Assembly (NCBI GenBank): GCA_021740045.1 | Contig: JAIPAP010000003.1 | Coordinates: forward strand, 4,061-68,060 | Length of the DNA: 64,000 nucleotides | Direction of reading: 5' to 3' | DNA from: Bacteroidales bacterium | GTDB lineage: Bacteria; Bacteroidota; Bacteroidia; Bacteroidales; JAIPAP01 | In this document: positions 8,470 to 44,009 of the stretch, piece by piece | Layout of the letters: each line of letters starts with the position of its first letter | Numbering within the stretch: the first letter of the stretch is position 1 | Notes under the pieces: generated by a model | Told to the model about the DNA's origin: nothing | What the model saw: the letters and a program-made list of their open reading frames with translations, nothing else | The model's database searches: none | Translations under genes and position numbers: made by a program

Positions 8470-8473
8470 AGTT

Positions 8474-23847: not shown

Positions 23848-23870
23848 GGAAAAGGCAAGTTGTAAAATTT

Positions 23871-23900
23871 AAAAAGGCTGCCTTTATCAGGCAGCCTTTT
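23871..23900. terminator. Bidirectional intrinsic terminator
   Basis: AAAAA-GGCTGCC-TTTATCA-GGCAGCC-TTTT, between convergent genes (oxidoreductase and tsf). Confidence 0.7.
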
Positions 23901-23932
23901 CATTATATCTGGTTTTAATGTGATCCTATGTA

Positions 23933-24769
23933 TTAATCACCAAGTTTAAGGCGTTTGAAATCGGCTACCGTAAGCTCTTTATCAAACCGATCGAGATACT
24001 GGCGAACCGTTATCTTGCCTTCCTTAACAAACTCCTGGTTAAGCAGGGTATTTTCCTTAAAGAACTTGTTTAATTTACCCTGGGCGATCTTTTCGGCCAA
24101 CTGTTCCGGCTTACCTTCCTGGATAGCTTGTTCCTTACCCAAAGCAATTTCCTTATCGATTTCCTCCTTCGGAACACCATCCTTATCAACCGCCAGCGGA
24201 TCCATAGCGGCCACCTGCATGGCGATCTCGTTACCGGCCTCGTCGATATTCTCAATGCCGGCTTTGTTGAAGCCGACCAAAGTCGCCAGGCTGTTTCCGT
24301 GATGGTTGTATTCAAATACGCGCTCAGCGCTAACGTATTCATATTTAGCCAGGGTCATTTTCTCGCCGGTTTTACCGATAAGGTCGGTAATGCTCTCATC
24401 AATGGAACGGGTATTGATTTGGAGGTTCTTGAATTCATCCAATGATTTGGGTTGTTCTTCAACAGCTTTATCAACAATGTGATTTGCAAAATCAACGAAT
24501 TCCTGGTTCTTAGCTACGAAGTCGGTTTCGCAGTTTAACATAATAATAGCACCAAAATTACGGTCTTTGTTGGTTTTTGCAATAATCACACCTTCGTTGG
24601 CTGCTTTATCGGCACGCTTATGAGCGAGTTTTTGTCCTTTTTTTCTCAGGTATTCTATTGCCTTGTTATAATCACCATCGGCTTCTACCAGCGCTTTTTT
24701 ACAATCCATCATACCGGCGCCGGTTTGTTGACGGAGTTTATTAACTTCTGCTGCAGTGATTTTTGCCAT
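23933..24769 (-). CDS. tsf: Translation elongation factor Ts
   Basis: N-terminal UBA-like region ITAAEVNKLRQQTGAGMMDCKKAL. Lies downstream of rpsB. Confidence 0.95.
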   Translation of the reverse strand: MAKITAAEVNKLRQQTGAGMMDCKKALVEADGDYNKAIEYLRKKGQKLAHKRADKAANEGVIIAKTNKDRNFGAIIMLNCETDFVAKNQEFVDFANHIVDKAVEEQPKSLDEFKNLQINTRSIDESITDLIGKTGEKMTLAKYEYVSAERVFEYNHHGNSLATLVGFNKAGIENIDEAGNEIAMQVAAMDPLAVDKDGVPKEEIDKEIALGKEQAIQEGKPEQLAEKIAQGKLNKFFKENTLLNQEFVKEGKITVRQYLDRFDKELTVADFKRLKLGD

Positions 24770-24796
24770 TTCTTTTCTAATATTAACAGTTATACT

Positions 24797-25717
24797 TTAT
24801 TTCTTTGTCCGACGAGATGTACCAGCGCTTTTTGCAGTTGTTCTGCGGGGTCTTCTGCGGCGTGATTCACCTTCTTCTTCACTTTCTTTGTCTTTGCGGG
24901 AGCCTTTTTTAGCAGCAGGCTTTGCTTCGCCTTCCTCGTCCTCTTCGTATTCTTCAACAGATTTCGAACTGGCTTTTGCTTTTTCCTCTTCTTCCTGCTC
25001 CTCTTCGTGAGCCCGCTTGTCTTTTTCAAGTTTACGCTCAGTCACACCTTCCTGAATAGCTTCCACCATCTTACCAACAACCAGTGAGATCGACTTGGAA
25101 GCATCATCGTTAGCGGGGATAGGGAAGTCAACCTTTTGCGGGTCGGAGTTGGTATCGACCAGGGCAAAAGTGGGGATATTAAGCTTGTTGGCTTCGGCTA
25201 CCGCAATACGTTCTTTATTAATATCAACCACAAAAATTGCTGAGGGCAACCGGTTCAAATCGGCAATACTACCGAGTTGCTTCTCCAGCTTTGCCCGTTC
25301 ACGTGAAATATGCAAACGTTCCTTTTTGGAAAAGTTCTGGAACGTATCGCTATTCATCAGCTTATCGATATTGGTCATCTTCCGTACGGCCTTACGAATG
25401 GTGGCAAAATTGGTAAGCATACCACCGGGCCAACGCTCAACAACATAGGGCATATTCACCGGTTTTACGGTTTCGGCTACTATATCTTTTGCCTGCTTTT
25501 TGGTTGCTACAAAAAGTATTTTCTTACCTGATTTAGCGATTTGCTTCATCGCTGCTGCGGCCTCATCGATCTTTGCTATTGTTTTATAAAGGTCGATAAT
25601 GTGAATACCATTACGCTCCATAAAAATGTAAGGAGCCATATTCGGATTCCATTTACGTTTCAGATGACCGAAATGAGCGCCGGCATCCAATAATTCATCA
25701 AAAGTTGTTCGTGCCAT
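24797..25717 (-). CDS. rpsB: 30S ribosomal protein S2 with a charged low-complexity C-terminal extension
   Basis: S2 core (LLDAGAHFGH ... ERWPGGMLTN) followed by an E/K/R-rich tail of about 75 aa. Confidence 0.95.
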   Translation of the reverse strand: MARTTFDELLDAGAHFGHLKRKWNPNMAPYIFMERNGIHIIDLYKTIAKIDEAAAAMKQIAKSGKKILFVATKKQAKDIVAETVKPVNMPYVVERWPGGMLTNFATIRKAVRKMTNIDKLMNSDTFQNFSKKERLHISRERAKLEKQLGSIADLNRLPSAIFVVDINKERIAVAEANKLNIPTFALVDTNSDPQKVDFPIPANDDASKSISLVVGKMVEAIQEGVTERKLEKDKRAHEEEQEEEEKAKASSKSVEEYEEDEEGEAKPAAKKGSRKDKESEEEGESRRRRPRRTTAKSAGTSRRTKK

Positions 25718-25831
25718 TTTTAAATTTTTAAAGGTTTACATTCCGATTAAAAAGCAATTGCTAAGTAGTACCACAAAGGCGGTAGTCTTAGCAATTTAGA
25801 TACTAAACCTGATTTATATAGGTAAGTAACA

Positions 25832-26218
25832 TTAACGCTTGCTGAACTGGAACTTCTTACGTGCTTTCTTCTGTCCGGGCTTTTTACGTTCAACCATGCG
25901 GGAATCTCTGCGAAGCATTCCTTTTGATTTAAGGGGTGAACGCAGCTCTTCATCAATCTGGATGAGAGCTCTTGCAATGGCCATGCGCAACGCTTCGGCC
26001 TGTCCGTTAATACCACCACCGGTCAATGTTGCCTTCACATCAAACTTTCCTGCGGTTTCGGTGGTTTCAAAAGGCTGCTTTACCACATACCGCAAGGTAC
26101 CCGTTGGAAAATAGCTTTCATAATCACGCTTATTCACGGTTACCTTACCGGAACCCTCCTGCAAGTAAACCCGGGCAATAGCTTTCTTTCTTCTACCTAT
26201 CGCATTGTATACTTCCAT
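25832..26218 (-). CDS. rpsI: 30S ribosomal protein S9
   Basis: GRRKKAIARV ... C-terminal KKARKKFQFSKR. Confidence 0.95.
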   Translation of the reverse strand: MEVYNAIGRRKKAIARVYLQEGSGKVTVNKRDYESYFPTGTLRYVVKQPFETTETAGKFDVKATLTGGGINGQAEALRMAIARALIQIDEELRSPLKSKGMLRRDSRMVERKKPGQKKARKKFQFSKR

Positions 26219-26221
26219 ATC

Positions 26222-26677
26222 TTACTTTATGTTATCGAGATTTATCTTTTTTGGTTTTTGTGCTTCATGCTGATGCTCTGTTCCTGCATATACCTTGAGG
26301 TTGCGGAAAAGCTGGCTTCCCAGTTTATTCTTGGGAAGCATGCCTTTAACAGCTTTCTCAACCAGGGCAATGGGCTTCTTTTGCAACAACTGGGCTGCAG
26401 TGTATGAATACTGCCCTCCCGGATACCCGGAATAGCGAATGTATTCTTTCTCATCCCACTTATTACCACTAAGGCTTACCTTTTCGGCATTGATCACAAT
26501 TACATTGTCACCACAATCAACATGGGGTGTAAACTCGGGTTTGTGCTTACCCCTCAACATCTTGGCTACCTTTGATGCCAAGCGACCCAGTTTTTCATTT
26601 TCTGCATCAACAAGAACCCATTCTTTATTAACAGTTTCTTTGTTAGCGCTAATCGTCTTATAACTTATCGTATTCAT
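26222..26677 (-). CDS. rplM: 50S ribosomal protein L13
   Basis: WVLVDAENEKLGRLAS...LRGKHKP. Lies directly upstream of rpsI. Confidence 0.95.
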   Translation of the reverse strand: MNTISYKTISANKETVNKEWVLVDAENEKLGRLASKVAKMLRGKHKPEFTPHVDCGDNVIVINAEKVSLSGNKWDEKEYIRYSGYPGGQYSYTAAQLLQKKPIALVEKAVKGMLPKNKLGSQLFRNLKVYAGTEHQHEAQKPKKINLDNIK

Positions 26678-26723
26678 TATAACAGAATTTCTTTTGCTAC
26701 ACTCTTCTTCTTAAAAAGGGGTG

Positions 26724-26755
26724 CAAAGATAGAACATTAAAATTTAATTCACAAA
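26724..26755 (-). promoter_or_regulatory. Bacteroidota sigma-A type promoter for rplM-rpsI(-rpsB-tsf)
   Basis: On the minus strand: TTTG (26755-26752), a 20-nt spacer, then TATCTTTG (26731-24). This matches the TTTG / TAnnTTTG consensus. The -7 box ends about 45 nt upstream of the rplM ATG. Confidence 0.6.
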
Positions 26756-26904
26756 CTTTTACCATTTTCCAGGATAAATCTGTGAAAACGGCGCCAAATA
26801 TAATTATTCAAGCAACCTAAACGATTAAACGGCAGATTAATTTCCTGTTAAAAATATAAACATTCGTTATAGGCTTTCGTTATAAGATAATAAAAACCAG
26901 CTCT

Positions 26905-27618
26905 ATGAGTGCAAAAAATGCATGGTTCATAATCATTTGGGTTAGCTTGTTTGCTATTGGGATGGCTTTTGTAGAAAGTGCTGTGGTAGTTTATCTCAGG
27001 GAGCTATATTACCCCACGGGGTTCGAATTCCCCCTGCGCGAAATACATAGCAATATTGCGCTAACGGAGGCCATTCGCGAAGCAGCAACCTTATTGATGC
27101 TCATTTCAATAGGTATCCTGGTGGGCCGCACCGCTACCGAAAAGTTCGGTGTGTTCCTGTTTGCCTTTGCCCTTTGGGATATTTTCTACTACGTTTTTTT
27201 AAAGGCTATTCTCAACTGGCCTGTCGAATGGCTGGAATGGGACGTATTGTTTATGCTGCCTGTTACCTGGGTTGGGCCGGTACTTGCGCCCATGTTAAAT
27301 GCCTTGGTAATGGCCATTTTAGGGACGCTCATTATTTGGGCCGTGCAAAAACACGGCAGGGCAAGCATTTCACGACTGCAATGGGGACTATTGATCATAG
27401 GCGCAGTTTTTATCCTGATCTCATACATGGAAGATTATGTGCTTTTTATGAATGATAAAATGCCACTTATGGAAATGTTTGCCCTGAGCGAAGAACAAAT
27501 CTCAAAATACATCACTCAATATAAACCCGATAATTTTAATTGGTTCCTTTATGGAGCGGGATTCATTCTGCATGTTATAGCGGTAATCTTGTTCGGCCGA
27601 AAATCCATTGGTCGGTAA
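26905..27618 (+). CDS. Polytopic membrane protein of unknown function
   Basis: 237 aa with about 6 hydrophobic helices. No family recognised. Confidence 0.45.
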   Translation: MSAKNAWFIIIWVSLFAIGMAFVESAVVVYLRELYYPTGFEFPLREIHSNIALTEAIREAATLLMLISIGILVGRTATEKFGVFLFAFALWDIFYYVFLKAILNWPVEWLEWDVLFMLPVTWVGPVLAPMLNALVMAILGTLIIWAVQKHGRASISRLQWGLLIIGAVFILISYMEDYVLFMNDKMPLMEMFALSEEQISKYITQYKPDNFNWFLYGAGFILHVIAVILFGRKSIGR

Positions 27619-27669
27619 GATTTCATTTTTATTAATTTTGCCTTTCTTGTAAAATCAATAACTCAATAG

Positions 27670-28590
27670 ATGTCGGTACAGGTAGAACACATAACAAAGA
27701 TATACGGCGAGCAGAAGGCATTGGATGATGTTTCGTTCGAAGTGAAGCCCGGTGAAGTGGTAGGCCTGCTGGGCCCTAACGGAGCCGGAAAATCAACCTT
27801 AATGAAGATATTAACCTGTTTTCTTCCCCAAACCTCCGGCGAAGCTTCAGTTATGGGCTTCGATGTACTCGAGGAATCAGTAGAAGTACGAAAACGTGTA
27901 GGATATCTTCCGGAGAATAATCCCCTTTACCTCGACATGTATTTAAAAGAGTACCTTGAGTTTATAGCTCATGTGCATAAGCTTGGAAAAAACATCTGGA
28001 ATCGCATCGCCGAAATAATCGAACTTACAGGGCTGGGGCAGGAGCAAAACAAAAAACTGGGAGAATTATCAAAGGGGTACCGGCAACGTGTGGGCATTGC
28101 ACAAGCTTTAATCCATCAACCCGAAGTGCTTATTTTAGATGAACCCACTTCCGGTCTCGATCCCAATCAGCTGGTTGAGATCCGTAATCTGATCACAAAA
28201 ATCGGAAAGGAAAAAACCGTAATTCTCTCCACTCACATTATGCAGGAGGTGGAAGCTGTGTGTGACCGGACTATCATCATTCATAAAGGCCGGATTATTG
28301 CCGATGATCAAACGGAAAACCTCTCCCGGCAATCAGCTAACCGCCAGGTAATTATAGCTGAGTTTGACTCCCCCATCGATAAAAATATGCTCGCCTCCAT
28401 TCAAGGTGTAATAAAAACTGAAAATACGGCCGGCAATACATGGCGTATAGAAGCAACCACCGAGCGGGACGTACGTTCCGATATCTTTAAGGCTGCTGTA
28501 AACGAAAATAAAACCGTGCTTTCGCTAAACAAGGAAACCAGGCGGTTGGAAGACATCTTCCACCAATTAACACAAAACAAAGAAGCCTGA
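27670..28590 (+). CDS. ABC transporter ATP-binding protein (GldA-like)
   Basis: Walker A GPNGAGKST, signature LSKGYRQR and Walker B LILDEPTSGLD. The GldA assignment rests only on size and family. Confidence 0.85.
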   Translation: MSVQVEHITKIYGEQKALDDVSFEVKPGEVVGLLGPNGAGKSTLMKILTCFLPQTSGEASVMGFDVLEESVEVRKRVGYLPENNPLYLDMYLKEYLEFIAHVHKLGKNIWNRIAEIIELTGLGQEQNKKLGELSKGYRQRVGIAQALIHQPEVLILDEPTSGLDPNQLVEIRNLITKIGKEKTVILSTHIMQEVEAVCDRTIIIHKGRIIADDQTENLSRQSANRQVIIAEFDSPIDKNMLASIQGVIKTENTAGNTWRIEATTERDVRSDIFKAAVNENKTVLSLNKETRRLEDIFHQLTQNKEA

Positions 28591-28601
28591 AAGCGCTTAT
28601 T

Positions 28602-28643
28602 AAAAAAAATGCCGGCTCTTTCTCTGAAGAACCGGCATTTTTT
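28602..28643. terminator. Bidirectional intrinsic terminator
   Basis: A8-GCCGGCTCTT-TCTCTG-AAGAACCGGC-ATTTTTT, between convergent genes. Confidence 0.7.
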
Positions 28644-28663
28644 ATTTGATATTAATTGCTGTA

Positions 28664-29407
28664 TTATCTAACCACCAACTTACGTGTTATCAGTAATTCA
28701 TTATTCAGCACCAATGTATAAAAATAAACTCCTTCTTTAAGGTCATTAACATTGATTCTAACTTTGGCCGCATCTTTCGTAACCGGTACACTCTTAACCA
28801 TGGCTCCCAACACATTGCGAACGGCTATCCTGGCCTGTCCCTGGTGATCCGGAGGTAAGGTATAATCGATATTGGTATAATCACCAGCCGGATTCGGATA
28901 GGCATTTATTTCCGGCTTAATGGCTTCAGGCTCTTCCTCTACTCCTACATAACCCGAAGTGTAATCAACGTAAACACTCACCGAATCGTCGGGGTTATTG
29001 CTATCGAAAAACACATACATCATGGATGATGTTCCGTCATTACCTTGCGGATAGTATTCGCCATGAAAGGAATCTTCTGTTTCGCCGGGATCAATGGTGA
29101 TGGGATTGGGTGATACAAAAGTTGAGGGCGGAAAGCAGGATTCACCCCAGCAGAAAGTATTCATGGTATTTTCCAGCAGATCGATCTCAATTTTTTTCAC
29201 CTTTACATCCAATGCATTGTTGGCATTATTGGTGACGTTTACATATGATTCTATAATGTCATTACCCGGCTCTTCAATAAATTCAACGGTAGCCCCATTT
29301 TCAATGGCGGTTCCGTCGGTGAGGGTTAATGACAGACTTTGGCCAAAGCCAAAATTGATGAGGGCAATAAAAAAAATCCCTATGAGTAAATGCTTTTTCA
29401 TAACCAT
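28664..29407 (-). CDS. Secreted protein with T9SS C-terminal sorting domain
   Basis: Signal peptide MKKHLLIGIFFIALINFGFGQ. CTD-like tail YPNPAGDYTNIDY...GVYFYTLVLNNELLITRKLVV. Confidence 0.75.
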   Translation of the reverse strand: MVMKKHLLIGIFFIALINFGFGQSLSLTLTDGTAIENGATVEFIEEPGNDIIESYVNVTNNANNALDVKVKKIEIDLLENTMNTFCWGESCFPPSTFVSPNPITIDPGETEDSFHGEYYPQGNDGTSSMMYVFFDSNNPDDSVSVYVDYTSGYVGVEEEPEAIKPEINAYPNPAGDYTNIDYTLPPDHQGQARIAVRNVLGAMVKSVPVTKDAAKVRINVNDLKEGVYFYTLVLNNELLITRKLVVR

Positions 29408-29649
29408 TCGTTTTTCATTTTTTAAAACAATGCAACATTTATGCTATATTTTAATTTCCGACTGCAAAAGTGAAATTTTTTTTCATAATCCCACGTCGTT
29501 GTTAACATCTTTTAATATTTCAACCAACCTCTGTCCTTCATCAATCCTATAAAATTGTCCTATCCTTGGAAAATTTGGTCCAAATGTACAAAATTAAATG
29601 AATAAGTAATATATTTACATTTCTAAATAAAACCTAAAAAACTGATAGC

Positions 29650-31296
29650 ATGAAAAGATTTTTACTATTTACCGGATTAGCGTTCTTTGTTTTAATGGCT
29701 TACAGTCAACAAGTTGAGCGCGAGATGGTGGTTCTTGAGATAGCCACCGGAACCTGGTGCCCTTATTGTCCGGGCTCTGCCATGGGCGCCGATGACCTGA
29801 TCGAAAACGGACACGATGTGGCCGTTATCGAATACCACTCGGGCGATGATTATCAGAACACCTATGCCACAAGCCGGATCAACTATTATGGGATCACTGG
29901 TTTTCCAACCGCTGTTTTCGATGGTGTTAGCCAGGTTGTGGGAGGCAGCTCCAATCAAAGCATGTATCCCCAGTACCTGCCGCGTTATCAGAACCGCAAG
30001 AATACACCCTCGTCATTTACCATTGATGTGGAAGGTTACCATTATGGTTTAACGGAATACCATGCCGATATTACCCTGGAAAAGGTGGCCGCTACAAGCA
30101 GTGAAGACATCGTATTGCATGCTGCCCTAACCGAATCGCATATAGAAGAATATTGGCAAGGGATGGATGAATTGAACTTTGTAGAAAGATTAATGATCCC
30201 CAACCAATATGGAACCCCGGTGGACTTTTCCGGTGGAGATATCCAGGAGGTTAATCTTACGTTTGATATGGAAGCCGAATGGGTGATGGATAATTGTGAG
30301 CTGGTGGTATTTCTGCAAGACACCGATACAAAGGAAATCCTTCAGGGTACCAAGATCAGCCTTACCGAATTCCCCTCAGCATGCCAGTTGGATGCAGGCA
30401 TTCTCAGCACAAGTCATATTCCGCTTACAACGTGTTCAGGAACAGTTCAGCCTTTGGTGGAATTTAACAACTGTGGTAATGAAGAGCTTACATCACTGGA
30501 CGTGAGCTATAGTGTAAATGGCGGCGAACCGGTTACGGCCGAATGGACCGGCTCATTAGCCTACCGCGATACAGCTACCATGGAATTACCCCTGGGAGAA
30601 TTTACGGTGGAGGAATCAAATACCCTCGAGGTTAGCCTGAGCAATCCCAATGGACAAGGCGATGAATTCAACGGAAACGATGCCCAAACACAAGAAATTG
30701 AACAGGCTATGGAGGTAACCAACCCCATCTACATCATGCTTCGTACGGATAACAATCCCGAGGAAACGACCTGGGAAATTCTGAATTCTTCAGGTGAAGT
30801 GGTTCATTCCGGAGGGCCCTATGAGGAACCTTCCACCTTTGTGTTGCTCAACGACCCGTTTGAATTCGAATATGACGATTGCTATTCCTTTATTATTTAT
30901 GATGCCGGTGGCAATGGCATACGAAACGGGAACGGCATGGGCATGTATTACATCGCTTATGGAAATGATGAGGAAATAGTGGAAGGCGCCGAGTTTGGCG
31001 ATCAGGAAGAAACGGAATTCAACCTTACTGTTACGTCGGTTAACGAACTGGCTAAAAACAACAAGATCACTCTTTATCCAAATCCGGTACAAAAAGGCGA
31101 GGCTGCTTACATCAATATTCCGGGCAATGAAAACGCCCGGTTCAGCATATTTGACAACACCGGCCACTTGCTACAGGAATTACAGGCTGAAAGCGGCATC
31201 AGTCAAATTCCCGTTAGCCGCCTAAGCGCCGGCGTCTATGTCATTCAAATAGTTACAGCGGATCAAGTGGTAAGTAGGAAGTTAATCATTGAATAA
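29650..31296 (+). CDS. T9SS-sorted protein with an N-terminal thioredoxin-like (Omp28-related) domain
   Basis: Signal peptide. CxxC in ATGTWCPYCPG. CTD-like tail LYPNPVQKGEAAYINI...AGVYVIQIVTADQVVSRKLIIE. Confidence 0.75.
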   Translation: MKRFLLFTGLAFFVLMAYSQQVEREMVVLEIATGTWCPYCPGSAMGADDLIENGHDVAVIEYHSGDDYQNTYATSRINYYGITGFPTAVFDGVSQVVGGSSNQSMYPQYLPRYQNRKNTPSSFTIDVEGYHYGLTEYHADITLEKVAATSSEDIVLHAALTESHIEEYWQGMDELNFVERLMIPNQYGTPVDFSGGDIQEVNLTFDMEAEWVMDNCELVVFLQDTDTKEILQGTKISLTEFPSACQLDAGILSTSHIPLTTCSGTVQPLVEFNNCGNEELTSLDVSYSVNGGEPVTAEWTGSLAYRDTATMELPLGEFTVEESNTLEVSLSNPNGQGDEFNGNDAQTQEIEQAMEVTNPIYIMLRTDNNPEETTWEILNSSGEVVHSGGPYEEPSTFVLLNDPFEFEYDDCYSFIIYDAGGNGIRNGNGMGMYYIAYGNDEEIVEGAEFGDQEETEFNLTVTSVNELAKNNKITLYPNPVQKGEAAYINIPGNENARFSIFDNTGHLLQELQAESGISQIPVSRLSAGVYVIQIVTADQVVSRKLIIE

Positions 31297-31326
31297 GCGC
31301 AAGGCTTTTCGGCTTTAAAAATACAG

Positions 31327-31364
31327 GGGCAACTGGGAAAGTTTTATTTTCCGGTTGCCCTTTT
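31327..31364 (+). terminator. Intrinsic terminator candidate
   Basis: GGGCAACTGG-N14-CCGGTTGCCC followed by TTTT, 30 nt after the stop codon at 31296. Confidence 0.5.
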
Positions 31365-31385
31365 CATTTGCTTTCGTATTTATCT

Positions 31386-33106
31386 CCGATCCGATAATTA
31401 TCGAATACGCGAATCCAACACGAATTGACGCTAAGTATGGAGCTGTCGTGGATTTGTAATCCACGCCATAAACCCGTGAGCAGAATACAAATTAAGCGGA
31501 TTATAAATCCGCTCAAACAGGTAGCGGCTATCAAACGCAAATAAACGCTAATATCTATTAGCAGAAATTCGCGGGTAATTCGCGGGGATTAGCGGACTAC
31601 ACCAGAGCTTACCGCTAAATAGTTAGATGGCGGGCGTTTGAAGCGGAGAAGGGTTTCCAACCCCTTCGGGGGTTTGAAACCCATGCGTTGCAATAATGGT
31701 TTTTTTGGAGCGAGGTTTCAAATCCCTGAACCTGCGCCTTTAGGCCAGGTGAAGGGTTGGAAACCTTAAGCCCCGCTAAGTGTCGAGCTGGCGTGGATTT
31801 GTAATCCACGCCATAAACCCGTGAGCGGATTACAAATCCGCTCAAGCAGGTAGCGGCTATCCAACGCAAATAAATGCTAATACCTGTTAGCGAAAATTCG
31901 CGGGTAATTCGCGGGGATAAGCGGACTACACCGGAGCTTACTACTAAATGTTTAGCTGGCGCGCGTTTGAAGCGGATTGCAGAAAAGAGGAGTAAATGCA
32001 CTAACCCATCGGTTTGCAGCGGCTTAACGCGTGCCCGGTAAACCTCCTCGTTTGTAACGAGATTTTTTCAACCCCTCTATAACCTTCATGAATTGCATAT
32101 TTCATGCTTCCCGCTGTTTTATCTCGTCACAGACGAGTGATATAGAAAGGCACGCGATACAATCGCGCGCCAGCAGCCGGGTTGCAAGACTAAAAACAGT
32201 AAGGGTTTCCAACCCCTTCGGGGGTTTGAAACCCATGCGTTGCAATAATGGTTTTTTTGGAGCGAGGTTTCAAATCCCTGAACCTGCGCCATTAGGCCAG
32301 GTGAAGGGTTGGAAACCTTAAGCCCCGTTAAAAGTCCGCGATGCGATGATTATAGGATACGCAAATCCAACACGAATTGACGCTAAGTGTCGAGCTGGCG
32401 TGGATTTGTAATCCACACCATAAGCCCGTGAGCGGAATACAAATTGAGCGGATTACAAATCCGCTCAAGCAGGTAGCGGCTATCCAACGCAAATAAATGC
32501 TAATACCTGTTAGCGAAAATTCGCGGGTAATTCGCGAGGATTAGCGGACTACACCAGAGCTTACCGCTAAATGGTTAGCTGGCGCGCGTTTGAAGCGGAT
32601 TCCAGAAAAGAGGAGTAAATGCACTAACCCATCGGTTTGCAGCGGCTTAACGCGTGCCCGGTAAATCTCCTCGTTTGTAACGAGATTTTTTCAACCCCTC
32701 TATAACCTTCATGAATTGCATATTTCATGCTTCCCGCTGTTTTATCTCGTCGCAGACGAGTGATATAGAAAGGCACGCGATGCAATCGCGCGCCAGCAGC
32801 CGGGCTGCAAGACTAAAAACAGTAAGGGTTTCCAACCCCTTCAGGGATTTGAAACCCATGCGTTGCAATAATGGGTTTCTGTGGAGCGAGGTTTCAAATC
32901 CCTGAGCCTGCGCCTTTAGGCCAGTGGAAGGGTTGGAAACCTTAAGCCCCGCTAAGTGGCGAGCTGGCGTGGATTTGTACTCAACGCCATAAACCCGTGA
33001 GCAGATTACAAATCCGCTCAAGCTGGTAGCGGCTATCCAACGCAAATAAATGCTAATACCTGTTAGCGAAAATTCGCGGGTAATTCGCGGGGATTAGCGG
33101 ACTACC
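31386..33106. repeat. Left array of a 552-623 bp hairpin-dense tandem repeat (2 full and 2 partial units)
   Basis: The anchor AAGGGTTTCCAACCCCTT occurs at 31649, 32201 and 32824. The same ordered modules are seen in every unit. See findings. Confidence 0.95.
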
Positions 33107-33121
33107 ATATTCCGGAGATCC

Positions 33122-33274
33122 CTAAAACAACCCTTCCACTACCTCATAATCCGCAATATTCGGTATGGTAACTTTTAGGCGGGCTTCGGCTTCCATAGCC
33201 CGGTTAATGGCAAAGATGGCGCCGTTATTGCGGGCCCAGCTGCGGCGGGCAATGCCGTTGTTGACATCCCACAT
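33122..33274 (-). pseudogene. hutU: 3' relic of a urocanate hydratase gene (last 49 codons plus stop)
   Basis: Translates to (M)WDVNNGIARRSWARNNGAIFAINRAMEAEARLKVTIPNIADYEVVEGLF*. This matches the C-terminus of the intact hutU at 37682..39688 at all but 3 residues. Homology stops at 33271. Confidence 0.85.
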
Positions 33275-33629
33275 TTTTTTATAGTCCACTTGGATTTAAA
33301 CAAACTTATGATTATTTTGAGCCGTCAATTACTTGTTTAAAACTATCTACGCTTGTCCTATGCTATATGACGAATGTTGAGCGCTTCAGAACTTGGAAAT
33401 AAGTAAACAGTATTTTAAACGCCACCATAGCGGATTAAAATACTACTAACATAAATAAAACATCATGTATCAAGCCTGCCATTACCGCTTGTTTTATTTC
33501 CTTAATCCAAAGGAGGTAAAGGATTATTCGCGCTTTTTTGTCACTAGTTTTGTCACTACCCTGAATTTTTCTCAAAAAACCAGTCACATTTTTAATTTTT
33601 TGCAACTATATAATATAGAGTATTATCAA

Positions 33630-35225
33630 ATGAAAAAGTCTCTGATTATCATTTTTATAAAATTTGGGCTTGTTTCAATCACACAAGCCCAAAGATGGCA
33701 ACACATCTATGGTGAACCAAACCAAACTGAAAACAGTTGGGATATAACTGAACATTACGACAATGGATATTTTATAACGGGGTCCCATAATACCAGATAT
33801 GGATGGTTGATCAAAACCGATATTAATGGAGAGGTATTATGGGATAAGATCATAGGCAAATATCCTGATGAAGCAATGATACGAGTAACTGTTTATGATG
33901 ATGAGGGAAATATATATGTATTGGGTACATTAATTCGTGAACAAACTGAAGATTGGCCGTTTATTGTGAAGTTAAATCCTTGTGGTGAAAAGCTCTGGTG
34001 TAAATGGTTTATCGATTATAAATTTATGTGGGGAGATTTTTTTGATGCAATTGTAATGGGTGATGGAGACATAGTTGGTCTGGCATATATGCCCACGGAT
34101 AATCAATATGAAATGATCTATTTATTCCGCATAAGCCCGGATGGGGAGCTAAGATGGAAGAAATCCTATGCCTCTCACAAACATCATGAACATTGCCATG
34201 AAATGCGATTAGGATACCGGTTGGTTAGTTTTAATAACTTGCTTATAATTGTAGGATATGCCTATTTGCCTTATCCCGGAAATCCTAATCATTTTTTCCA
34301 AACACCCATGTTTATTGGGGTTGATTATAACTTTGAGGAGAAATTCCTGTTACCTTTCGGCATGAGGGATTCGCTTCATGGCAAGGCTTTTTCCGGGATG
34401 CCGCTGAACGATTCTATATTTATGGGAGTGGGAGCACATCGTTTTAATGAAGGAGGTTATGAGACGTGTAATACAATGCTGATGTTTTTTAATAAAGATG
34501 GTGAAGAAATCGGTTATAGTACAATACCCAATGAGGCTATAGCGCCGGAAATTAAAGCTAATTATTCACGCGACATAGCATGGATCAACGATAGTTTGTT
34601 TATGACAACTACTTGGTATGGCGAAGAATATAGTGGCAATACCTATGGTGAATTTGTAATTGATACAGCAGGGACTGTTTATGATAATAAAAAGAATTAT
34701 GAAAATGTTAGATATTGTAGGATAACAAAAACATTTGACAATAAATACATTATTTCTGGTAACTTAAACTATTCCGATATTATTCTTTATAAAATCAACG
34801 AAAACCTTGAAGCGGACACGGTATACCCCGGTAATTACAACTATGACAGCTTGTGCAATGAGCTTCCCATACCCTCCGGCACTATCGACCTGGCCGATTG
34901 CGATATTGTAACAAACATAGATGAAATACCCACACTGGAAGAATACCGTGCTGGTAAAAACCGGATAGCGACGGAGGCATTTCCCAACCCCGTTACCGGG
35001 CAAACAGTAGAACTGCAGTTTAAAAATCCGGGTAAATTAAAAAAACTGGAAATCAGGATATTTAATTTGCTGGGCAGGGAAGTTCATAAAGAGCAAATCC
35101 ATAACCGGCAAACCGGCACAAAGATCACCACGGCCCATTGGCAAGCAGGCATATATGTAGTCATAATATACAGTAATGGTGTGCTTAAAGGGAAATGCAA
35201 GTTAGTGGTGAAATATAGAAGATAG
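33630..35225 (+). CDS. Secreted protein with T9SS C-terminal sorting domain
   Basis: Start moved to ATG 33630 (signal peptide MKKSLIIIFIKFGLVSITQAQ). The track's upstream extension is AT-rich. CTD-like tail AFPNPVTGQTVELQF...GIYVVIIYSNGVLKGKCKLVV. Confidence 0.7.
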   Translation: MKKSLIIIFIKFGLVSITQAQRWQHIYGEPNQTENSWDITEHYDNGYFITGSHNTRYGWLIKTDINGEVLWDKIIGKYPDEAMIRVTVYDDEGNIYVLGTLIREQTEDWPFIVKLNPCGEKLWCKWFIDYKFMWGDFFDAIVMGDGDIVGLAYMPTDNQYEMIYLFRISPDGELRWKKSYASHKHHEHCHEMRLGYRLVSFNNLLIIVGYAYLPYPGNPNHFFQTPMFIGVDYNFEEKFLLPFGMRDSLHGKAFSGMPLNDSIFMGVGAHRFNEGGYETCNTMLMFFNKDGEEIGYSTIPNEAIAPEIKANYSRDIAWINDSLFMTTTWYGEEYSGNTYGEFVIDTAGTVYDNKKNYENVRYCRITKTFDNKYIISGNLNYSDIILYKINENLEADTVYPGNYNYDSLCNELPIPSGTIDLADCDIVTNIDEIPTLEEYRAGKNRIATEAFPNPVTGQTVELQFKNPGKLKKLEIRIFNLLGREVHKEQIHNRQTGTKITTAHWQAGIYVVIIYSNGVLKGKCKLVVKYRR

Positions 35226-35272
35226 AAAATAGAAGATAGAAAAATAGATTTAAACCATAAAAATTAACCAAA

Positions 35273-36139
35273 TTGAAAAGGCTTAGTGTATTATTATTAA
35301 CGGCAATTTTGTTTTCCTCTCGTGCATTTGCACAGGATTATTACCCCCTGGTTCAGGAAAATAATGAGTGGAACGTGCTTTATGTATATAATGACTTAAA
35401 TGTGTATCCTCCAGATACTATTTATTATACCCAAACATATAAGATTGACGGCGATACGCTAATTGAAGAGCAAATTTATCAAAAGGTATATATAAAGGAA
35501 GAGGATATGGAAAACTGGGAGTACCAAACAAGTCTGCGGGAGGAAAACCAAAAAGTATGGAAATTTTCAAAGTATTCTAATGAGGAACTATTAATTTATG
35601 ATTTCCAGGTTGAGGTAACCGATACCCTGTCTTATCTTCCGCAATCAGCTGTGGTGGATTCCATCAAATACATGGAAATTATTGGTGAGCAAAGGAAACA
35701 TATATTTTTAAGTTACCTTAACACTCCCTGTACTGAGTTATGGGTAGAAGGTATCGGGAGCAACTATGGTATATTATCAAGTGGAGAAGGTATGTCCTTA
35801 GGAAGTTGGACTTGGTTATTATGCTATTGGCAGGATGAGGAATTGGTATACAGTAACCCGGATTTTGAAGGCTGCTGGATGACCAATGTCGGCCTGGAAG
35901 AAGCCAGGGAAAGACAAATCAGGATTTACCCCAATCCTGCAAAAGACTATCTCCGTATTGAAAATACCGGGAATAATAGAATCAGGGAGATTTCCATTTC
36001 CGATATCACAGGACGTGAAATCATGGTCATTAAAGAATGTAACAGGCCAATAAATATTTCAAGCCTTGCTTCCGGTGTATATATCGTAAAAGTAATATAT
36101 TCGGGTAGTGAAATAACCCGTAAACTTGTTGTGGAGTAA
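35273..36139 (+). CDS. Secreted protein with T9SS C-terminal sorting domain
   Basis: TTG start with signal peptide KRLSVLLLTAILFSSRAFAQ. CTD-like tail IYPNPAKDYLRIEN...GVYIVKVIYSGSEITRKLVVE. Confidence 0.7.
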   Translation: MKRLSVLLLTAILFSSRAFAQDYYPLVQENNEWNVLYVYNDLNVYPPDTIYYTQTYKIDGDTLIEEQIYQKVYIKEEDMENWEYQTSLREENQKVWKFSKYSNEELLIYDFQVEVTDTLSYLPQSAVVDSIKYMEIIGEQRKHIFLSYLNTPCTELWVEGIGSNYGILSSGEGMSLGSWTWLLCYWQDEELVYSNPDFEGCWMTNVGLEEARERQIRIYPNPAKDYLRIENTGNNRIREISISDITGREIMVIKECNRPINISSLASGVYIVKVIYSGSEITRKLVVE

Positions 36140-36185
36140 ATTATTTGTAAAAAAGTCAAGTATCTATTCAGTCATTAAGATTGAT

Positions 36186-37666
36186 TTATCCGCGAAACCA
36201 AAACCAATTGACGCCAACAGCACTTAGCGAAAATTATCGGGTTCCGAGAAGGGTTTCCAACCCCTTCAGGGATTTGAAACCCATGCGTTGCAATAATGGG
36301 TTTCTGTGGAGCGAGGTTTAAAATCCCTGAGCCTGCGCCTTTAGGCCAGTGGAAGGGTTGGAAACCTTAAGCCCCGCTAAGTGTCGAGCTGGCGTGGATT
36401 TGTAATCCACGCCATAAACCTGTGAGCAAATTACAAATAAGCGGATTACAAATCCGCTCAAGCAGGTAGCGGCTATCCAACACGAATAAACGTTTATAGC
36501 TCTTAGCGAAAATTCGCGGGTAATTCGCGAGGATTAGCGGACTACACCAGAGCTTACCACTAAATGGTTAGCTGGCGCGCGTTTAAAGCGAATTGCAGAA
36601 AAGAGGAGTAAATGCACTAACCCATCGGTTTGCAGCGGCTTAACGCGTGCCCGGTAAATCTCCTCGTCTGTAACTAGATTTTTTCAACCCCGCTATAACC
36701 TTCATGAATTGCATATTTCATGCTTCCCGCTGTTTTATCTCATCGCAGACGAGTGATATAGAAAGGCACGCGATGCAATCGCGCGCCAGCAGCCGGGTTG
36801 CAAGACTAAAAACAGTAAGGGTTTCCAACCCCTTCAGGGATTTGAAACCCATGCGTTGCAATAATGGGTTTATGAGGAGCGAGGTTTCAAATCCCTGAAC
36901 CTGCGCCTTTAGGCCGGGTGAAGGGTTGGAAACCTTAAGCCCCGTTAAGTGTCGAGCTGGCGTGGATTTGTAATCCATGCCATAAACCCCTGAGTGGATT
37001 ACAAATCCGCTCAAGCAGGTAGCGGCTATCCAACGCAAATAAACGTTAATAGCCTTAGCGAAAATTCGCGGATAATTCGCGGGGATTAGCGGACTACACC
37101 GGAACTTACTACTAAATGTTTAGCTGGCGGGCGTTTAAAGCGAATTGCACAAAAGATAAGTAAATGCACTAACCCATCGGTTGGCAGCGGCTTAACGCGT
37201 GCCCGGTATATTTTCTCGTTTGTAACGAGATTTTTTCAACCCCGCTATAACCTTCATGAATTGCATATTTCATGCTTCCCGCTGTTTTACCTCGTCACAG
37301 ACGAGTGATATAGAAAGGCACGCGATGAAATCGCGCGCCAGCAGCCGGGCTGCAAGACTAAAAACAGTAAGGGTTTCCAACCCCTTCGGGGGTTTGAAAC
37401 CCATGCGTTGCAATAATGGGTTTCTGTGGAGCGAGGTTTCAAATCCCTGAGCCTGCGCCTTTAGGCCGGGTGAGGGGTTGGAAACCTTAAGTCCTGCTAA
37501 ATGTCGAGCTGGCGTGGATTTGTAATCCACGCCATAAACCCGTGAGCGGATTACAAATTAAGCGGATTACAAATCCGCTCAAGCAAGTAGCGGCTATCCA
37601 ACGCAAATAAATGCTAATAGCCTTAGCGAAAATTAGCGGGTAATTCGCGAGAATTAGCAGACTACC
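36186..37666. repeat. Right array of the same 552-568 bp tandem repeat (2 full and 2 partial units)
   Basis: The anchor occurs at 36249, 36817 and 37369. The array ends 15 nt before the hutU stop codon. Confidence 0.95.
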
Positions 37667-37681
37667 ATATTCCGGAGATCC

Positions 37682-39688
37682 CTAAAACAACCCCTCCACT
37701 ACCTCATCATCGGCAATATTCGGCACAGTAACTTTCAAACGTGGTTCAGCTTCCATAGCCCGGTTAATGGCAAAGATGGCGCCGTTATTCCTTGCCCAGC
37801 TGCGGCGTGCAATGCCGTTGTTGACATCCCAGTAAATCATGCTTTCGATGCGGCGATCGGCTTCTTCGCTGCCATCCAGCAACATCCCGAAACCACCATT
37901 AATAACTTCACCCCAGCCTACACCACCACCATTATGGATGGATACCCAGGTAGCACCCCGGAATGAATCACCTATCACATTATGGATAGCCATATCGGCC
38001 GTAAAACTCGAACCGTCATAAATATTAGCCGTTTCGCGATAAGGCGAATCCGTACCGGAAACATCATGGTGGTCGCGGCCCAACACCACGGGGGCCGAAA
38101 TTTTCCCTTCCCGTATAGCCTTGTTAAACGCCAGGGCTATCCTTATACGTCCTTCGGCATCGGCATACAATATCCGGGCTTCCGAGCCAACCACCATCTT
38201 ATTTTCTTCGGCTGAGCGTATCCAATGCAGGTTATCATTCAGTTGCTGTTTGATCTCGACAGGGGCTTTCTGTGCCATTTCTTCCAGCACTTCGGCTGCA
38301 ATGCGGTCGGTGGTTTGCAGGTCGTTGTGATCGGAAGAAGTACACACCCAGCGGAAAGGCCCGAAACCAAAGTCGAAACACATGGGCCCCATAATATCTT
38401 CTACATAGGAGGGATATTTAAACGAGCCGTCCTGCTTCATGATATCGGCACCCGCCCGGCCGGCCTCCAACAGGAAGGCATTGCCGTAATCCCAGAAATA
38501 CATGCCATTTGCCGTCATTTTGTTGATGGCATTTACCTGCCGTTTCAGCGATTCATGCACCTTTTCCTTAAATTTATCCGGTTCATTGGCCATCATTTCA
38601 TTGGCTTGCTCAAAACTTAGCCCGGCCGGATAATAGCCGCCGGCATACGGATTATGCAAGGACGTTTGGTCGGAGCCCAGATCGATGTAAAAGTCTTCCT
38701 TCACCAGCTTTTCCCATAGATCAACAATGTTGCCCTGGTAGGCCAGCGAAACCGCTTCTTTTTGATCGCGTGCTTCTTTCATCCGGGCAAAAAGCTGATC
38801 GAGGTCTTCATAGACTTCATCTACCCAAGCCTGTTCATGACGCTTTCTGGTAGCGGCAGGGTTTACCTCGGCAACCACGCCAATGGCGCCGGCAATAACC
38901 GAGGCTTTTGCCTGTGCACCCGACATTCCTCCTAAACCGGAAGTCACGTATATCTTTCCCGAAAGGTCATCGGAGCCTTTTTCCTGCATACGGCCTGCAT
39001 TTAGCACGGTAATGGTGGTGCCATGCACAATTCCCTGCGGACCAATGTACATAAAGGAACCGGCAGTCATTTGCCCGTATTGGGAAACGCCCAGGGCATT
39101 AAATTTTTCCCAGTGATCGGGTTTGGAATAATTGGGGATGACCATGCCATTAGTCACCACCACTCTTGGTGCTTCTTTATGCGATGGGAATAATCCCATC
39201 GGATGCCCTGAATACAACACCAGGGTTTGTTCCTCGGTCATTTCGGCCAGGTACTTCATGGTAAGGCGGTATTGGGCCCAGTTTTGAAAAACGGCGCCAT
39301 TGCCGCCATAAGTGATCAGTTCATGTGGATGCTGGGCCACTGCCGTATCGAGGTTATTGCTCAGCATCAGCATGATGGCTGCCGCTTGTTTGGATTGATG
39401 GGGGAAATCATCTATTTTTCTGGCAGAGATGGGATAATCGGGCCTGAAACGGTACATATAAATACGTCCGTACTTTTTCAGCTCTTCGGCAAATTCCGGG
39501 GCCAGCTCGCCATGATGCTTTTTGGGAAAATAGCGTAAGGCATTCCTAATCGCCAGTTTCTTTTCTTCTTTGTTCAATATATCTTTCCGTTTGGGCGCAT
39601 GATTGATGTTTTCATCATAGGGTTTCGGCGCCGGCAACTCATCCGGTATTCCTGCTAAAATCGACTGTTGAAATGCTTTTAAGTCCAT
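37682..39688 (-). CDS. hutU: Urocanate hydratase
   Basis: 668 aa with full-length urocanase similarity (GGMSGAQ, TSLHNPYAGGYYP, GRDHHDVSGTDSPYRET). Confidence 0.95.
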   Translation of the reverse strand: MDLKAFQQSILAGIPDELPAPKPYDENINHAPKRKDILNKEEKKLAIRNALRYFPKKHHGELAPEFAEELKKYGRIYMYRFRPDYPISARKIDDFPHQSKQAAAIMLMLSNNLDTAVAQHPHELITYGGNGAVFQNWAQYRLTMKYLAEMTEEQTLVLYSGHPMGLFPSHKEAPRVVVTNGMVIPNYSKPDHWEKFNALGVSQYGQMTAGSFMYIGPQGIVHGTTITVLNAGRMQEKGSDDLSGKIYVTSGLGGMSGAQAKASVIAGAIGVVAEVNPAATRKRHEQAWVDEVYEDLDQLFARMKEARDQKEAVSLAYQGNIVDLWEKLVKEDFYIDLGSDQTSLHNPYAGGYYPAGLSFEQANEMMANEPDKFKEKVHESLKRQVNAINKMTANGMYFWDYGNAFLLEAGRAGADIMKQDGSFKYPSYVEDIMGPMCFDFGFGPFRWVCTSSDHNDLQTTDRIAAEVLEEMAQKAPVEIKQQLNDNLHWIRSAEENKMVVGSEARILYADAEGRIRIALAFNKAIREGKISAPVVLGRDHHDVSGTDSPYRETANIYDGSSFTADMAIHNVIGDSFRGATWVSIHNGGGVGWGEVINGGFGMLLDGSEEADRRIESMIYWDVNNGIARRSWARNNGAIFAINRAMEAEPRLKVTVPNIADDEVVEGLF

Positions 39689-39819
39689 GCTTTCCTTAAT
39701 TTATTGTTCGTATTCAAAATGGGGTATAAAATTACAGCTTTTTAAAGAATTAAATGGAGAAGACCCAGGCAAATGGATTTCCATTTCAGCAGGCCGAAAA
39801 TTTAGTTAATTTTGCATGA

Positions 39820-41052
39820 GTGATTAAGAAACAGGAAAAGAAGATTTACAATCAAAAAGATTCTCGATTGCAAATAATTGAAGTTAACGATAAGAAGACG
39901 AGGAAGGAATTTCTAATGCTTCCGGTAAGGCTTTACAAGGATGATGAAAACTTTATTCGTCCCTTGGATAAAGATATCGAGTCGGTATTTGATCCCAAAA
40001 AGAATAAGAAATTCCGTCATGGGGAAGCCATAAGGTGGTTATTATTAAATGATGAAGGTAAAACCATAGGCAGGGTGGCCGCTTTCATCGACCGCAAAAC
40101 GGCCGAAAAAAATGATCAGCCCACAGGAGGTATGGGATTTTTTGAATGTGTTAACGATCAGGAGGCTGCTTTCAAATTGTTCGATCAGTGCAAGGCGTGG
40201 CTTGAGGAAAGAGGAATGGAAGCTATGGATGGCCCTGTTAACTTCGGGGAACGTGACCGTTGGTGGGGCTTATTGTTCGACGGCTTTTATGAACCCAATT
40301 ATTGCATGCCCTATAACTTCGGCTATTACAAAGACCTTTTCGAAGCCTATGGATTCAAGATTTATTTTAAACAATATACTTATCACCGCAAGGTAAAAAC
40401 CGGTGGCATCAGCGATATCATCCGTGAAAAAGCCGACCGCGTAGCGCAAAACCCCAAATATCACTTTGAGCACAGCCGGAAGAGAAACCTCGATAAATAC
40501 ACACAAGATTTTCAGTCTATCTATAATGAAGCCTGGGGCAGCGTTCCAGGCGTTTCTAAGATGAGTAGCATACAAGCCAAAGCGCTCATGAAGCAAATGA
40601 AACCCATCATCGATGAAAAACTGCTTTGGTTCGCTTATTACGAGGATAAACCCATTGCCTTTTACCTCATGCTTCCCGAGATCAACCAGGTGATCAAACA
40701 CATGAACGGCAAGATGGACCTGTATGGCAAGCTGTTATTCCTTTATTACAAATGGGCCAAAAAGATCGATAAAGCTTTTGGATTGATCTTTGGCGTGGTA
40801 CCCGAGCACCAGGGCAAAGGTGTTGAAGGCGCTATTGTGATGGCCTTTTCGAAAGTTGCCTGGGCACCGGGCTTTCCATATGAAGATTTTGAAATGAACT
40901 GGATAGGCGATTTCAATCCGGCCATGATGCGCGTAGCCCAGCAGGTAGGCGGCAAAATCCGCAAAACCCATCACACCTACCGCAAACTTTTCGACGAAAC
41001 CAGGGAGTTTAAGCGAGCACCGGTCATGGGACGGCAAAAGCGGAAGAAGTAA
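39820..41052 (+). CDS. GNAT-like N-acetyltransferase family protein (about 400 aa Bacteroidota family)
   Basis: Conserved-looking N-terminus LQIIEVNDKKTRKEFLMLPVRLYKDD. The start is uncertain: GTG 39820 lies only 6 nt after a TAATTTTG (-7-like) box at 39807-39814, so TTG 39868 is an alternative. Confidence 0.55.
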   Translation: MIKKQEKKIYNQKDSRLQIIEVNDKKTRKEFLMLPVRLYKDDENFIRPLDKDIESVFDPKKNKKFRHGEAIRWLLLNDEGKTIGRVAAFIDRKTAEKNDQPTGGMGFFECVNDQEAAFKLFDQCKAWLEERGMEAMDGPVNFGERDRWWGLLFDGFYEPNYCMPYNFGYYKDLFEAYGFKIYFKQYTYHRKVKTGGISDIIREKADRVAQNPKYHFEHSRKRNLDKYTQDFQSIYNEAWGSVPGVSKMSSIQAKALMKQMKPIIDEKLLWFAYYEDKPIAFYLMLPEINQVIKHMNGKMDLYGKLLFLYYKWAKKIDKAFGLIFGVVPEHQGKGVEGAIVMAFSKVAWAPGFPYEDFEMNWIGDFNPAMMRVAQQVGGKIRKTHHTYRKLFDETREFKRAPVMGRQKRKK

Positions 41053-41130
41053 GCCAACATACGACGATGCGGCTTTTCATGAAGCCGGGCAAGATTGTTC
41101 CTGGTTAGGTGTTTCAATGTGTATATGGAA

Positions 41131-41432: not shown

Positions 41433-41555
41433 TTTATATGCCATTTACACAAACAGTCGCAACCCCAATATACCAGACCACTCCACAGCCGGATAAACAA
41501 CTCACCCGGCTGTGGTGTTAAATATCTGGATGTTGAATATGAAAAGAAGGAGAAC

Positions 41556-42548: not shown

Positions 42549-42575
42549 AAAATAATTTATTGAATCTGTTACCTT

Positions 42576-42601: not shown

Positions 42602-42614
42602 AAAGTATGATTGA

Positions 42615-44007: not shown

Positions 44008-44009
44008 TT

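Follow-up and report, generated by a model that had tools for sequence, protein, structure and literature searches.

A Bacteroidales contig (JAIPAP010000003.1 of assembly GCA_021740045.1) carries two arrays of a large tandem repeat crowded with short hairpins, and the question raised by this locus is what kind of element the repeat is. The whole stretch of DNA analyzed, called the window here, is 64,000 nucleotides (64 kb) long. An earlier interpretation made from its letters without database searches, the sequence-only reading, had offered a tandem array of a large structured RNA, an overgrown element of the repetitive extragenic palindrome (REP) or bacterial interspersed mosaic element (BIME) type, or an array of protein-binding sites. 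The second of these fits best, whereas the structured RNA gained no support. The balance of evidence leans toward the arrays being a lineage-private, non-coding macrosatellite of REP/BIME-type palindromes that was amplified by recombination and is passive at most. A REP/BIME-like nature is preferred because the palindromes form inverted pairs, lie at the 3' ends of convergent genes, are arranged in mosaic modules, were duplicated together with gene DNA, and have arm cores that match the apex of REP doublets from metagenomes. Membership of the REP family is not established, because no dispersal is seen in 60 kb, most of the hairpins are untagged, and the search for a REP-associated tyrosine transposase (RAYT) was confined to the window. 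No evidence of a dedicated function of the arrays was found.

Organization of the two arrays

The left array extends from about 31374 to 33105 and ends in …GGACTAC, and the right, or sister, array extends from 36183 to 37665 and ends in …GACTAC. Neither is assigned to a strand. The left array had previously been placed at 31386 to 33106, and both of these ends are corrected here. The units are marked by an 18-mer anchor, AAGGGTTTCCAACCCCTT, which occurs exactly six times in the window (at 31649, 32201, 32824, 36249, 36817 and 37369), against 0.01 occurrences expected by chance. The repeat periods are 552, 623, 568 and 552 bp. The anchor positions and periods given by the sequence-only reading were reproduced exactly, and the ordered modules and hairpins that it named were all found in the units. 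In a multiple alignment, the units are 93-96% identical to one another and keep the same order of modules i, ii and iii throughout.

The left array consists of a head, ii (without iii), i, ii, iii, i, a second head-like segment (head'), ii, iii, i and a partial ii. The right array consists of a head with a deletion, i, ii, iii, i, ii, iii, i and a partial ii. The two heads are homologous, and the first unit of each array lacks the 225-nt module iii. The first-unit junctions are GGAG/AAGGG and CGAG/AAGGG, and the internal junctions are CAGT/AAGGG (the slash marks the join). The alignment bears out the proposal that the 623-bp unit is a 552-bp unit with a head-like insert and a duplicated half-hairpin, which measure 55 nt and 16 nt. 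The insert, head' (32328 to 32382, unstranded), is homologous to the array head at 31380-31419, and some parts of it are also paralogous to other segments of the unit.

Sequence variants are distributed between the arrays as a mosaic. The third unit of the left array (L3) resembles the first of the right (R1), L1 is like L2, and R3 is a mixture. In addition, successive units alternate between two types, with the half-hairpin present or absent and the haplotype being A or B. Because variants are shared in this mosaic way, the arrays appear to keep exchanging sequence, and together with the alternation of unit types this points to ongoing unequal exchange or gene conversion between them.

Palindromes and predicted folding

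Module (i) is a nested double inverted repeat with four mini-hairpins, GGGTT-TCC-AACCCC, GGGGTT-TGA-AACCC, AGGTT-TCA-AATCC and GGGTT-GGA-AACC. Its first copy lies at 31649 to 31770 and the others at 32201-32322, 32824-32945, 36249-36370, 36817-36938 and 37369-37490, none of them stranded. The same extended fold, with 98.5% of positions paired, is predicted in all six copies. Module ii contains an inverted pair with GTAG…CTAC ends, which in the copy at 31850 to 31929 (unstranded) consists of GTAGCGGCTATCC, 52 nt and GGATAAGCGGACTAC; the right arm is GGATTAGCGGACTAC in most other copies. A helix between the arms of this pair is predicted in the consensus fold, where columns 97-109 pair with columns 162-176. 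The terminal copies of the pair end, at their CTAC, at 33105 and 37665, which are the boundaries of the two arrays. A terminator-like hairpin on the plus strand (32047 to 32068) has the form CTCGTT-TGT-AACGAG followed by A and T6. Further copies occur at 32670 and 37214, and the copy in R1 is degenerate.

Perfect hairpins (loop of 3 nt, stem of 6 bp or more) are concentrated in this region, with 21 of the 47 in the window falling within 3.2 kb of arrays, and their count outside the arrays is near shuffle level. Every short hairpin has an inverted partner, as the loops indicate: TCC with GGA and TGA with TCA in module (i), and TGT with ACA in the hairpin pairs H1/H2 and H3/H4. The members of pairs A/A', B/B', H1/H2 and H3/H4 are 79-93% complementary. 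Since the hairpins come with inverted partners, each can be folded singly or a pair can be folded as one long hairpin, as in REP doublets. Compared to its shuffles, one unit has a far lower predicted folding energy on each strand (z-scores of -7.9 and -7.0). Three domains closed by long-range helices are predicted, and one of these, a GC helix of 11 bp, surrounds module iii. Within each unit, several short motifs come back in phase: AGCGGA five times, CGCTAA/TTAGCG four times and AATTCGCGGG twice at 11-bp spacing. Differences between copies had been said to fall largely in loops. This holds for the examples quoted in its support but not overall, as 31 of the 54 variable columns in the full units lie inside predicted plus-strand stems.

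Flanking genes and duplication of the hutU end

The left array is approached by a convergent Omp28-like gene for a cargo protein of the type IX secretion system, or T9SS (29650 to 31296, plus strand; Pfam Omp28 and Por_Secre_tail). The intrinsic terminator of this gene (31325 to 31362, plus strand) has a 16-bp stem followed by a T-run and gave a weak ctRNA-like match only (E=0.35). The array begins about 12 nt past it. On the far side of the left array lies a 165-bp pseudo-fragment of the 3' end of hutU (33107 to 33271, minus strand), which is about 90% identical to 37667-37831 and was assigned by a weak Urocanase_C match and by BLAST matches to the hutU genes of relatives. The previous description of the array had not mentioned this fragment. 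The arrays, in direct orientation, enclose two T9SS-cargo genes (33630-35225 and 35273-36139, plus strand; Pfam Por_Secre_tail). The end of the right array is 16 nt away from the stop codon of the urocanate hydratase gene hutU itself (37682 to 39688, minus strand; Pfam Urocanase N, middle and C domains). The two arrays share their last base, which lies 16 nt from the hutU stop or from the 165-bp pseudo-copy of the gene end. Because the array ends are the same, the heads are homologous and a hutU pseudo-fragment stands on the left, one segment of about 1.7-1.9 kb, comprising head, array and hutU end, has evidently been duplicated around the two T9SS-cargo genes.

A perfect Bacteroidota -7 box, TAAGTTTG, is located just upstream of the pseudo-fragment (33301 to 33308, minus strand) and points into the fragment and the left array. 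It may drive minus-strand transcription through the array. A 55-aa open reading frame (ORF) at 33122-33289 begins at this box.

The ORFs scanned in the window encode Bacteroidota housekeeping functions, including the dcw cluster, rpsB-tsf, rplM-rpsI, tgt, lptFG and gldB. No domain of a transposase, RAYT, reverse transcriptase, integrase or Cas protein was present in the roughly 60 ORFs scanned. The sequence-only reading had likewise seen no transposase, RAYT, reverse transcriptase or cas gene.

Likeness to REP and BIME clusters

The arrays share several properties with REP, BIME and REPIN elements (PMC3733652, PMC3116915, PMC3337134). Their short palindromes are extragenic and lie where convergent genes end, the imperfect palindromes come as inverted doublets able to form one long hairpin, and the mosaic tandem clusters carry pieces of flanking DNA. 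Co-duplication of flanking gene DNA has been described for large REP clusters (PMC3733652). They also differ from these elements. The array unit of 552-623 bp holds about 10 hairpins of at least four sequence types, compared to BIME periods of about 80-120 bp. The GTAG/CTAC tag occurs on one pair only (GTAGCGGCTATCC…GGATTAGCGGACTAC), and the module (i) arms and hairpins H1-H5 lack it; most array hairpins have neither a GTAG nor a CGTC tag. Unlike typical REPs, the arrays have no dispersed copies and no RAYT within the window. The host also differs, being a member of the Bacteroidales, and CGTC-type repeats are the only ones reported in that phylum. RAYT genes are single-copy and may be encoded anywhere in the genome.

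Metagenomes were scanned with a pattern taken from the two arm cores of module (i), GGTTTCCAACC and GGTTGGAAACC separated by 80-105 nt. At least 120 loci were listed, compared to about 3 expected by our estimate. The matches listed are palindromic elements of about 119 nt flanked by GTAGCGCA on the left and TGCGCTAC on the right. Tags of the form GT[AG]G…C[TC]AC are present in 91 of the 122 matches listed, and among these matches the apex GGTT-TCC-AACC is shared by at least 10 different lower stems. The same sequence forms the core of the module (i) arm. The anatomy of these elements is that of GTAG-tagged REP doublets, or REPINs (PMC3733652, PMC3116915). The link to the arrays is weak and is probably one of architecture, in which two hairpins, a spacer and two inverted hairpins follow one another, rather than of homology, because the only sequences in common are the 11-mers demanded by the pattern.

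The metagenome elements (L020-L139, mostly soil contigs) form a very abundant superfamily of GTAG…CTAC-flanked REP doublets, each of about 119 nt. The commonest form is GTAGCGCA-GGTTTCCAACC-TGCTGTATCGC…GCGATACAGCA-GGTTGGAAACC-TGCGCTAC, whose inner hairpins, CGATT-TCC-AATCG and GGCT-GGA-AGCC, may have either orientation. These doublets are not in Rfam, and no paper on them was found by sequence search. One of the contigs (L102, Ga0209187_1000988) contains tandem arrays of 5 and 9 units of 120-121 nt at 5561-6197 and 7741-8878, with a 241-nt higher-order period and the hairpins GGCGGTT-GGA-AACCGCC and AACGGGAT-AA-ATCCCGTT in the unit. The same gene 3' end of about 115 nt precedes each of them. 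As in the window, the duplication took in a gene end together with a hairpin array, and two sister arrays resulted. In contrast to the window, the unit is 120 nt rather than 552 nt, the organism is a different one (53% GC), and homology is limited to the 11-mer.

Tests for coding and for RNA genes

The arrays are not coding, judging from their reading frames. Every frame of the full units contains 4 to 16 stop codons. The longest ORF, of 128 aa, had no homologue among 5.8 billion protein clusters. ORFs had been reported to end differently between copies. One ORF of 64-77 aa departs from this, being intact with an invariant ATG in all four full units, and its differences are mostly non-synonymous. 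Its 64-aa form gave one match only in a HMMER search of 1.84 billion representatives, to an unrelated repeat protein at chance level, so that this ORF, too, is without a homologue.

The tests for an RNA gene gave no support either. The Rfam search proposed by the sequence-only reading was run and matched no family at gathering score, and at E<=5 it returned chance-level matches only (CRISPR-DR31, 19.6 bits versus a cut-off of 35). Of the 50 occurrences of the Bacteroidota -7 box (TAnnTTTG) in the window, none lies inside the arrays on either strand, in agreement with the claim made for the unit. Compensatory changes affect none of 44 pairs across the six copies of module (i) and 1 of 165 predicted pairs in the four full units, in a test of low power as the copies are 93-96% identical. 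A further compensatory change, from G-C to A-T and identified by eye, falls in a pairing of GAGGAG with CTCCTC, which shares bases with the 5' arm of the terminator-like hairpin in an attenuator-like layout. The plus strand of module (i) folds 8-20 kcal/mol better than the minus strand. In the plus-strand consensus fold, 15 changes preserve a wobble compared to 6 A·C changes, and the minus-strand fold is the mirror image (3 versus 13). When the pairs of both folds are pooled, there are 22 G·T and 24 A·C changes, and the pairs common to both folds give 3 and 3. A plus-strand RNA proposed from the wobble excess (15:6) was therefore rejected as an artefact of strand-specific structure prediction that is gone on pooling. 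A tandem array of a large structured RNA, as the sequence-only reading had considered, has no support from any of these tests.

The unit resembles GOLLD, ROOL, OLE and HEARO RNAs in its size class (500-800 nt), its multi-domain predicted fold and its lack of coding capacity. Covariation in many genomes defines those RNAs, which come as single genes with promoters, whereas no Rfam match, covariation, promoter box or homologue was found for the unit. Its stems are also, unlike theirs, perfect DNA palindromes, and both strands fold equally well.

Distribution and assembly

An exact scan for the 18-mer in 185,579 species genomes gave 18 single matches, which is the chance number, and none was homologous by BLAST. 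Four patterns scanned against viral contigs found nothing real, and a distant blastn search with two units had no match in plasmids and phages. In the metagenome scan, made with the two arm cores only, none of the loci listed (at least 120) was homologous to the unit. The repeat was not found in any of four related loci. The closest hutU homologues are just 80-81% identical to hutU of the window. In GCA_021738575.1, the closest relative that keeps the Omp28-hutU neighborhood (hutU 81% identical), the intergenic region carries a different gene and no repeat. In the relative L140, the Omp28-like gene also adjoins hutU, and the two T9SS-cargo genes are not at that position. With no occurrence detected outside the locus, the evidence points to a local satellite, the outcome that the sequence-only reading had itself named for a repeat confined to this place.

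On the other side of hutU, relatives (L140 and L142) have a gene for an extracytoplasmic function (ECF) sigma factor and one for a family 2 (GT2) glycosyltransferase directly upstream. In the window, five genes are inserted there (39820-44936): a 410-aa gene without an assigned function and genes for an aldo-keto reductase, a methyltransferase, a phosphopantetheinyl transferase (PPTase) and a patatin. Together with the changes on the other side, these five genes mean that rearrangement has affected both flanks of hutU.

Misassembly does not explain the repeat. Over window 23748-31476, a Logan contig assembled independently from short reads of run SRR12088347 (L145) agrees with the sequence at 99.987%, and it ends within the left array, at the point where the unit variants diverge. 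The same run has two more contigs that match the window, one of which is interrupted at an 8-nt microsatellite unrelated to the arrays.

Weighing the explanations

Several observations count against a recombination-amplified REP/BIME-type macrosatellite. No copy of a hairpin or arm lies outside the arrays in about 60 kb of the window, so that the dispersal typical of REPs is not seen. The GTAG/CTAC tag is carried by one of about 10 hairpin types, and the window and the metagenome doublets have only the two demanded 11-mers in common, with no wider BLAST homology. The 552-bp three-domain unit is several-fold larger than any BIME period known to us. A purely neutral view also leaves some hints of constraint without an explanation. 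A stretch of 45 nt is identical in all four full units, and the GAGGAG/CTCCTC pairing has its one compensatory change. Stems that pair on both strands are variable in 5.8% of columns compared to 11.7% of other columns (p=0.04), although the comparison is biased and weak as evidence, since structure prediction selects conserved pairs. The passive role of terminator or stabilizer would be transferred from other REP systems.

The arrays could instead be a cluster of a non-autonomous mobile element, such as a REPIN, a miniature inverted-repeat transposable element (MITE) or a PATE-like element, that is mobilized by a HUH tyrosine transposase (RAYT/TnpA) encoded elsewhere and that grew by adjacent insertions. 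This is unlikely but has features in its favor: the hairpins form inverted doublets of which one pair has GTAG/CTAC ends, both arrays terminate exactly at the CTAC of that pair, the apex of the module (i) arm is identical to that of the GTAG-tagged metagenome doublets, and the head, module iii and the half-hairpin behave like insertions or deletions. However, the roughly 60 ORFs scanned encode no domain of a RAYT, transposase or integrase, no dispersed copy lies in the 60 kb outside the arrays, no target-site duplications were seen, and no copy turned up in searches of the plasmid, phage and viral collections. The full 550-bp order is moreover common to the units, which segmental reiteration explains better than independent insertions do. 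Because the size of the unit, its three-domain fold and the 45-nt core are unexplained, a small probability is also left for a new kind of genetic element. The 552-bp unit, private to an uncultured Bacteroidales lineage, would then be a large structured RNA of three domains, expressed by extending the hutU transcript at its 3' end or from a promoter of an unconventional kind, or else a non-autonomous element amplifying in tandem at a hairpin with a CTAC end, and the invariant 45-nt core and the GAGGAG/CTCCTC-terminator layout would be functional parts.

That each unit encodes a structured non-coding RNA of about 550 nt and of a new family, the locus being a set of tandem RNA genes, is rather improbable. 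The very stable fold of the unit, its three domains with long-range closing helices, the terminator-like hairpin with T6 once per unit, the attenuator-like overlap with its compensatory change, and the better plus-strand fold of module (i) are what such genes would have. They are set against the lack of an Rfam match even at E<=5, of a -7 box in the arrays on either strand and of covariation support, the disappearance of the wobble excess on pooling, the near-equal folding of both strands as expected of DNA palindromes, and the absence of a homologue from the collections searched and of the repeat from a syntenic relative. We give a slightly lower probability to an array of double-stranded DNA sites for a dimeric nucleoid, partition or regulatory protein, in which the palindromes centered on 3 bp would be operators. 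Near-perfect palindromes with an odd 3-bp center throughout, the in-phase motifs (AGCGGA, CGCTAA/TTAGCG and AATTCGCGGG) and strand-symmetric mismatches would agree with such a role at the DNA level. No candidate gene for a binding protein adjoins the arrays, one protein could not read the at least four unrelated palindrome types, and nothing comparable is kept in relatives. An expanded or chimerically joined assembly is very improbable. The contig is metagenome-assembled, and contigs that short reads gave for the same organism are interrupted at the array, but the copies diverge by 4-7% with structured indels, and assemblers collapse repeats rather than diversify them. The left boundary was reproduced independently (at 99.987%), and the hutU pseudo-fragment is 10% diverged from the gene.

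Proposed origin and significance

Part of the history of the repeat can be read from the sequence. A palindrome-rich stretch of about 330-620 bp was reiterated in tandem between the convergent Omp28/T9SS-cargo gene and hutU, and modules (the head, the half-hairpin of 16 nt and module iii of 225 nt) were gained and lost during this process. The whole block and the last 165 bp of hutU were later duplicated, so that direct copies now flank the two T9SS-cargo genes. Amplification may have proceeded by unequal homologous recombination or replication slippage, with no dedicated enzyme, and the element itself probably makes no product. Its roles would be passive at most, such as stopping or insulating convergent transcription or providing hairpin caps for the 3' ends of the hutU and Omp28 mRNAs. 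Through RecA, the 1.5-kb direct repeats may promote loss or amplification of the T9SS cassette between them.

If this interpretation is correct, the repeat is mainly a curiosity. It would show that REP/BIME-like clusters can reach macrosatellites of about 550 bp in Bacteroidales, within the Bacteroidota, a phylum in which such repeats are poorly catalogued. It would also show that clusters of palindromes can drag gene ends along and can leave two T9SS surface-protein genes open to excision or amplification. The locus serves as a warning that DNA palindromes alone give a high hairpin density and strongly negative z-scores on both strands, which are not evidence of an RNA gene. The superfamily of GTAG-tagged doublets with the apex GGTT-TCC-AACC, abundant in soil metagenomes, may be of wider use.

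Other systems compared and minor features of the window

Module (i) resembles the attC sites of integrons and of CALIN (clusters of attC sites lacking integrases) in being a palindromic site of about 120 nt with AAC…GTT cores (TTCCAAC / GTTGGAA) in its outer arms and in occurring once per "cassette" of about 550 bp. This candidate was rejected: the spacing of the arms is asymmetric (1 nt versus 25 nt), the arrays begin and end in module ii, the cassettes are non-coding and identical, and the roughly 60 ORFs include no integrase. A MITE was rejected as well. The arms of module (i) are like terminal inverted repeats, but their flanks (…ACAGT/AAGGG and CCTTAAG/CCCCG) carry no duplication and there are no dispersed copies in the 64 kb. 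In a CRISPR array, the segments between module (i) copies would be spacers; here they are repeated at about 95% identity, and the scanned ORFs have no cas domain. An origin of replication or iterons gave poor DnaA-box matches, and an invertible promoter between H3 and H4 was dismissed as no promoter box lies inside. For tandem integration of a Xer-dependent element (IMEX) at dif, at the replication terminus, no dif-like site above chance was found. The cumulative GC skew has its peak (0.37) at 34000-44000 and declines to either side, which hints weakly at a replication terminus, without support from gene orientation.

Three further features were noted. The 8-nt microsatellite at which a short-read contig breaks (window 41131-41431) has about 32 copies of TCAATCCA/TCAGTCCA after four copies of TGATTGGT. 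It is intergenic and upstream of the aldo-keto reductase gene, whose true start is likely near 41557. As three does not divide its length evenly, the tract could serve in phase variation by strand slippage. Another intergenic tandem repeat (5384-5556), between a GNAT-domain gene and an acyltransferase gene, consists of three 29-nt units with the hairpin CCCGAT-GGCT-ATCGGG followed by about 10 CATTCTC/CAATCTC heptamers. Finally, the match of a 126-aa ORF at 22478-22858 to the AAA_14 ATPase domain is confined to the N-terminal part of the domain, and the ORF is probably a gene fragment.

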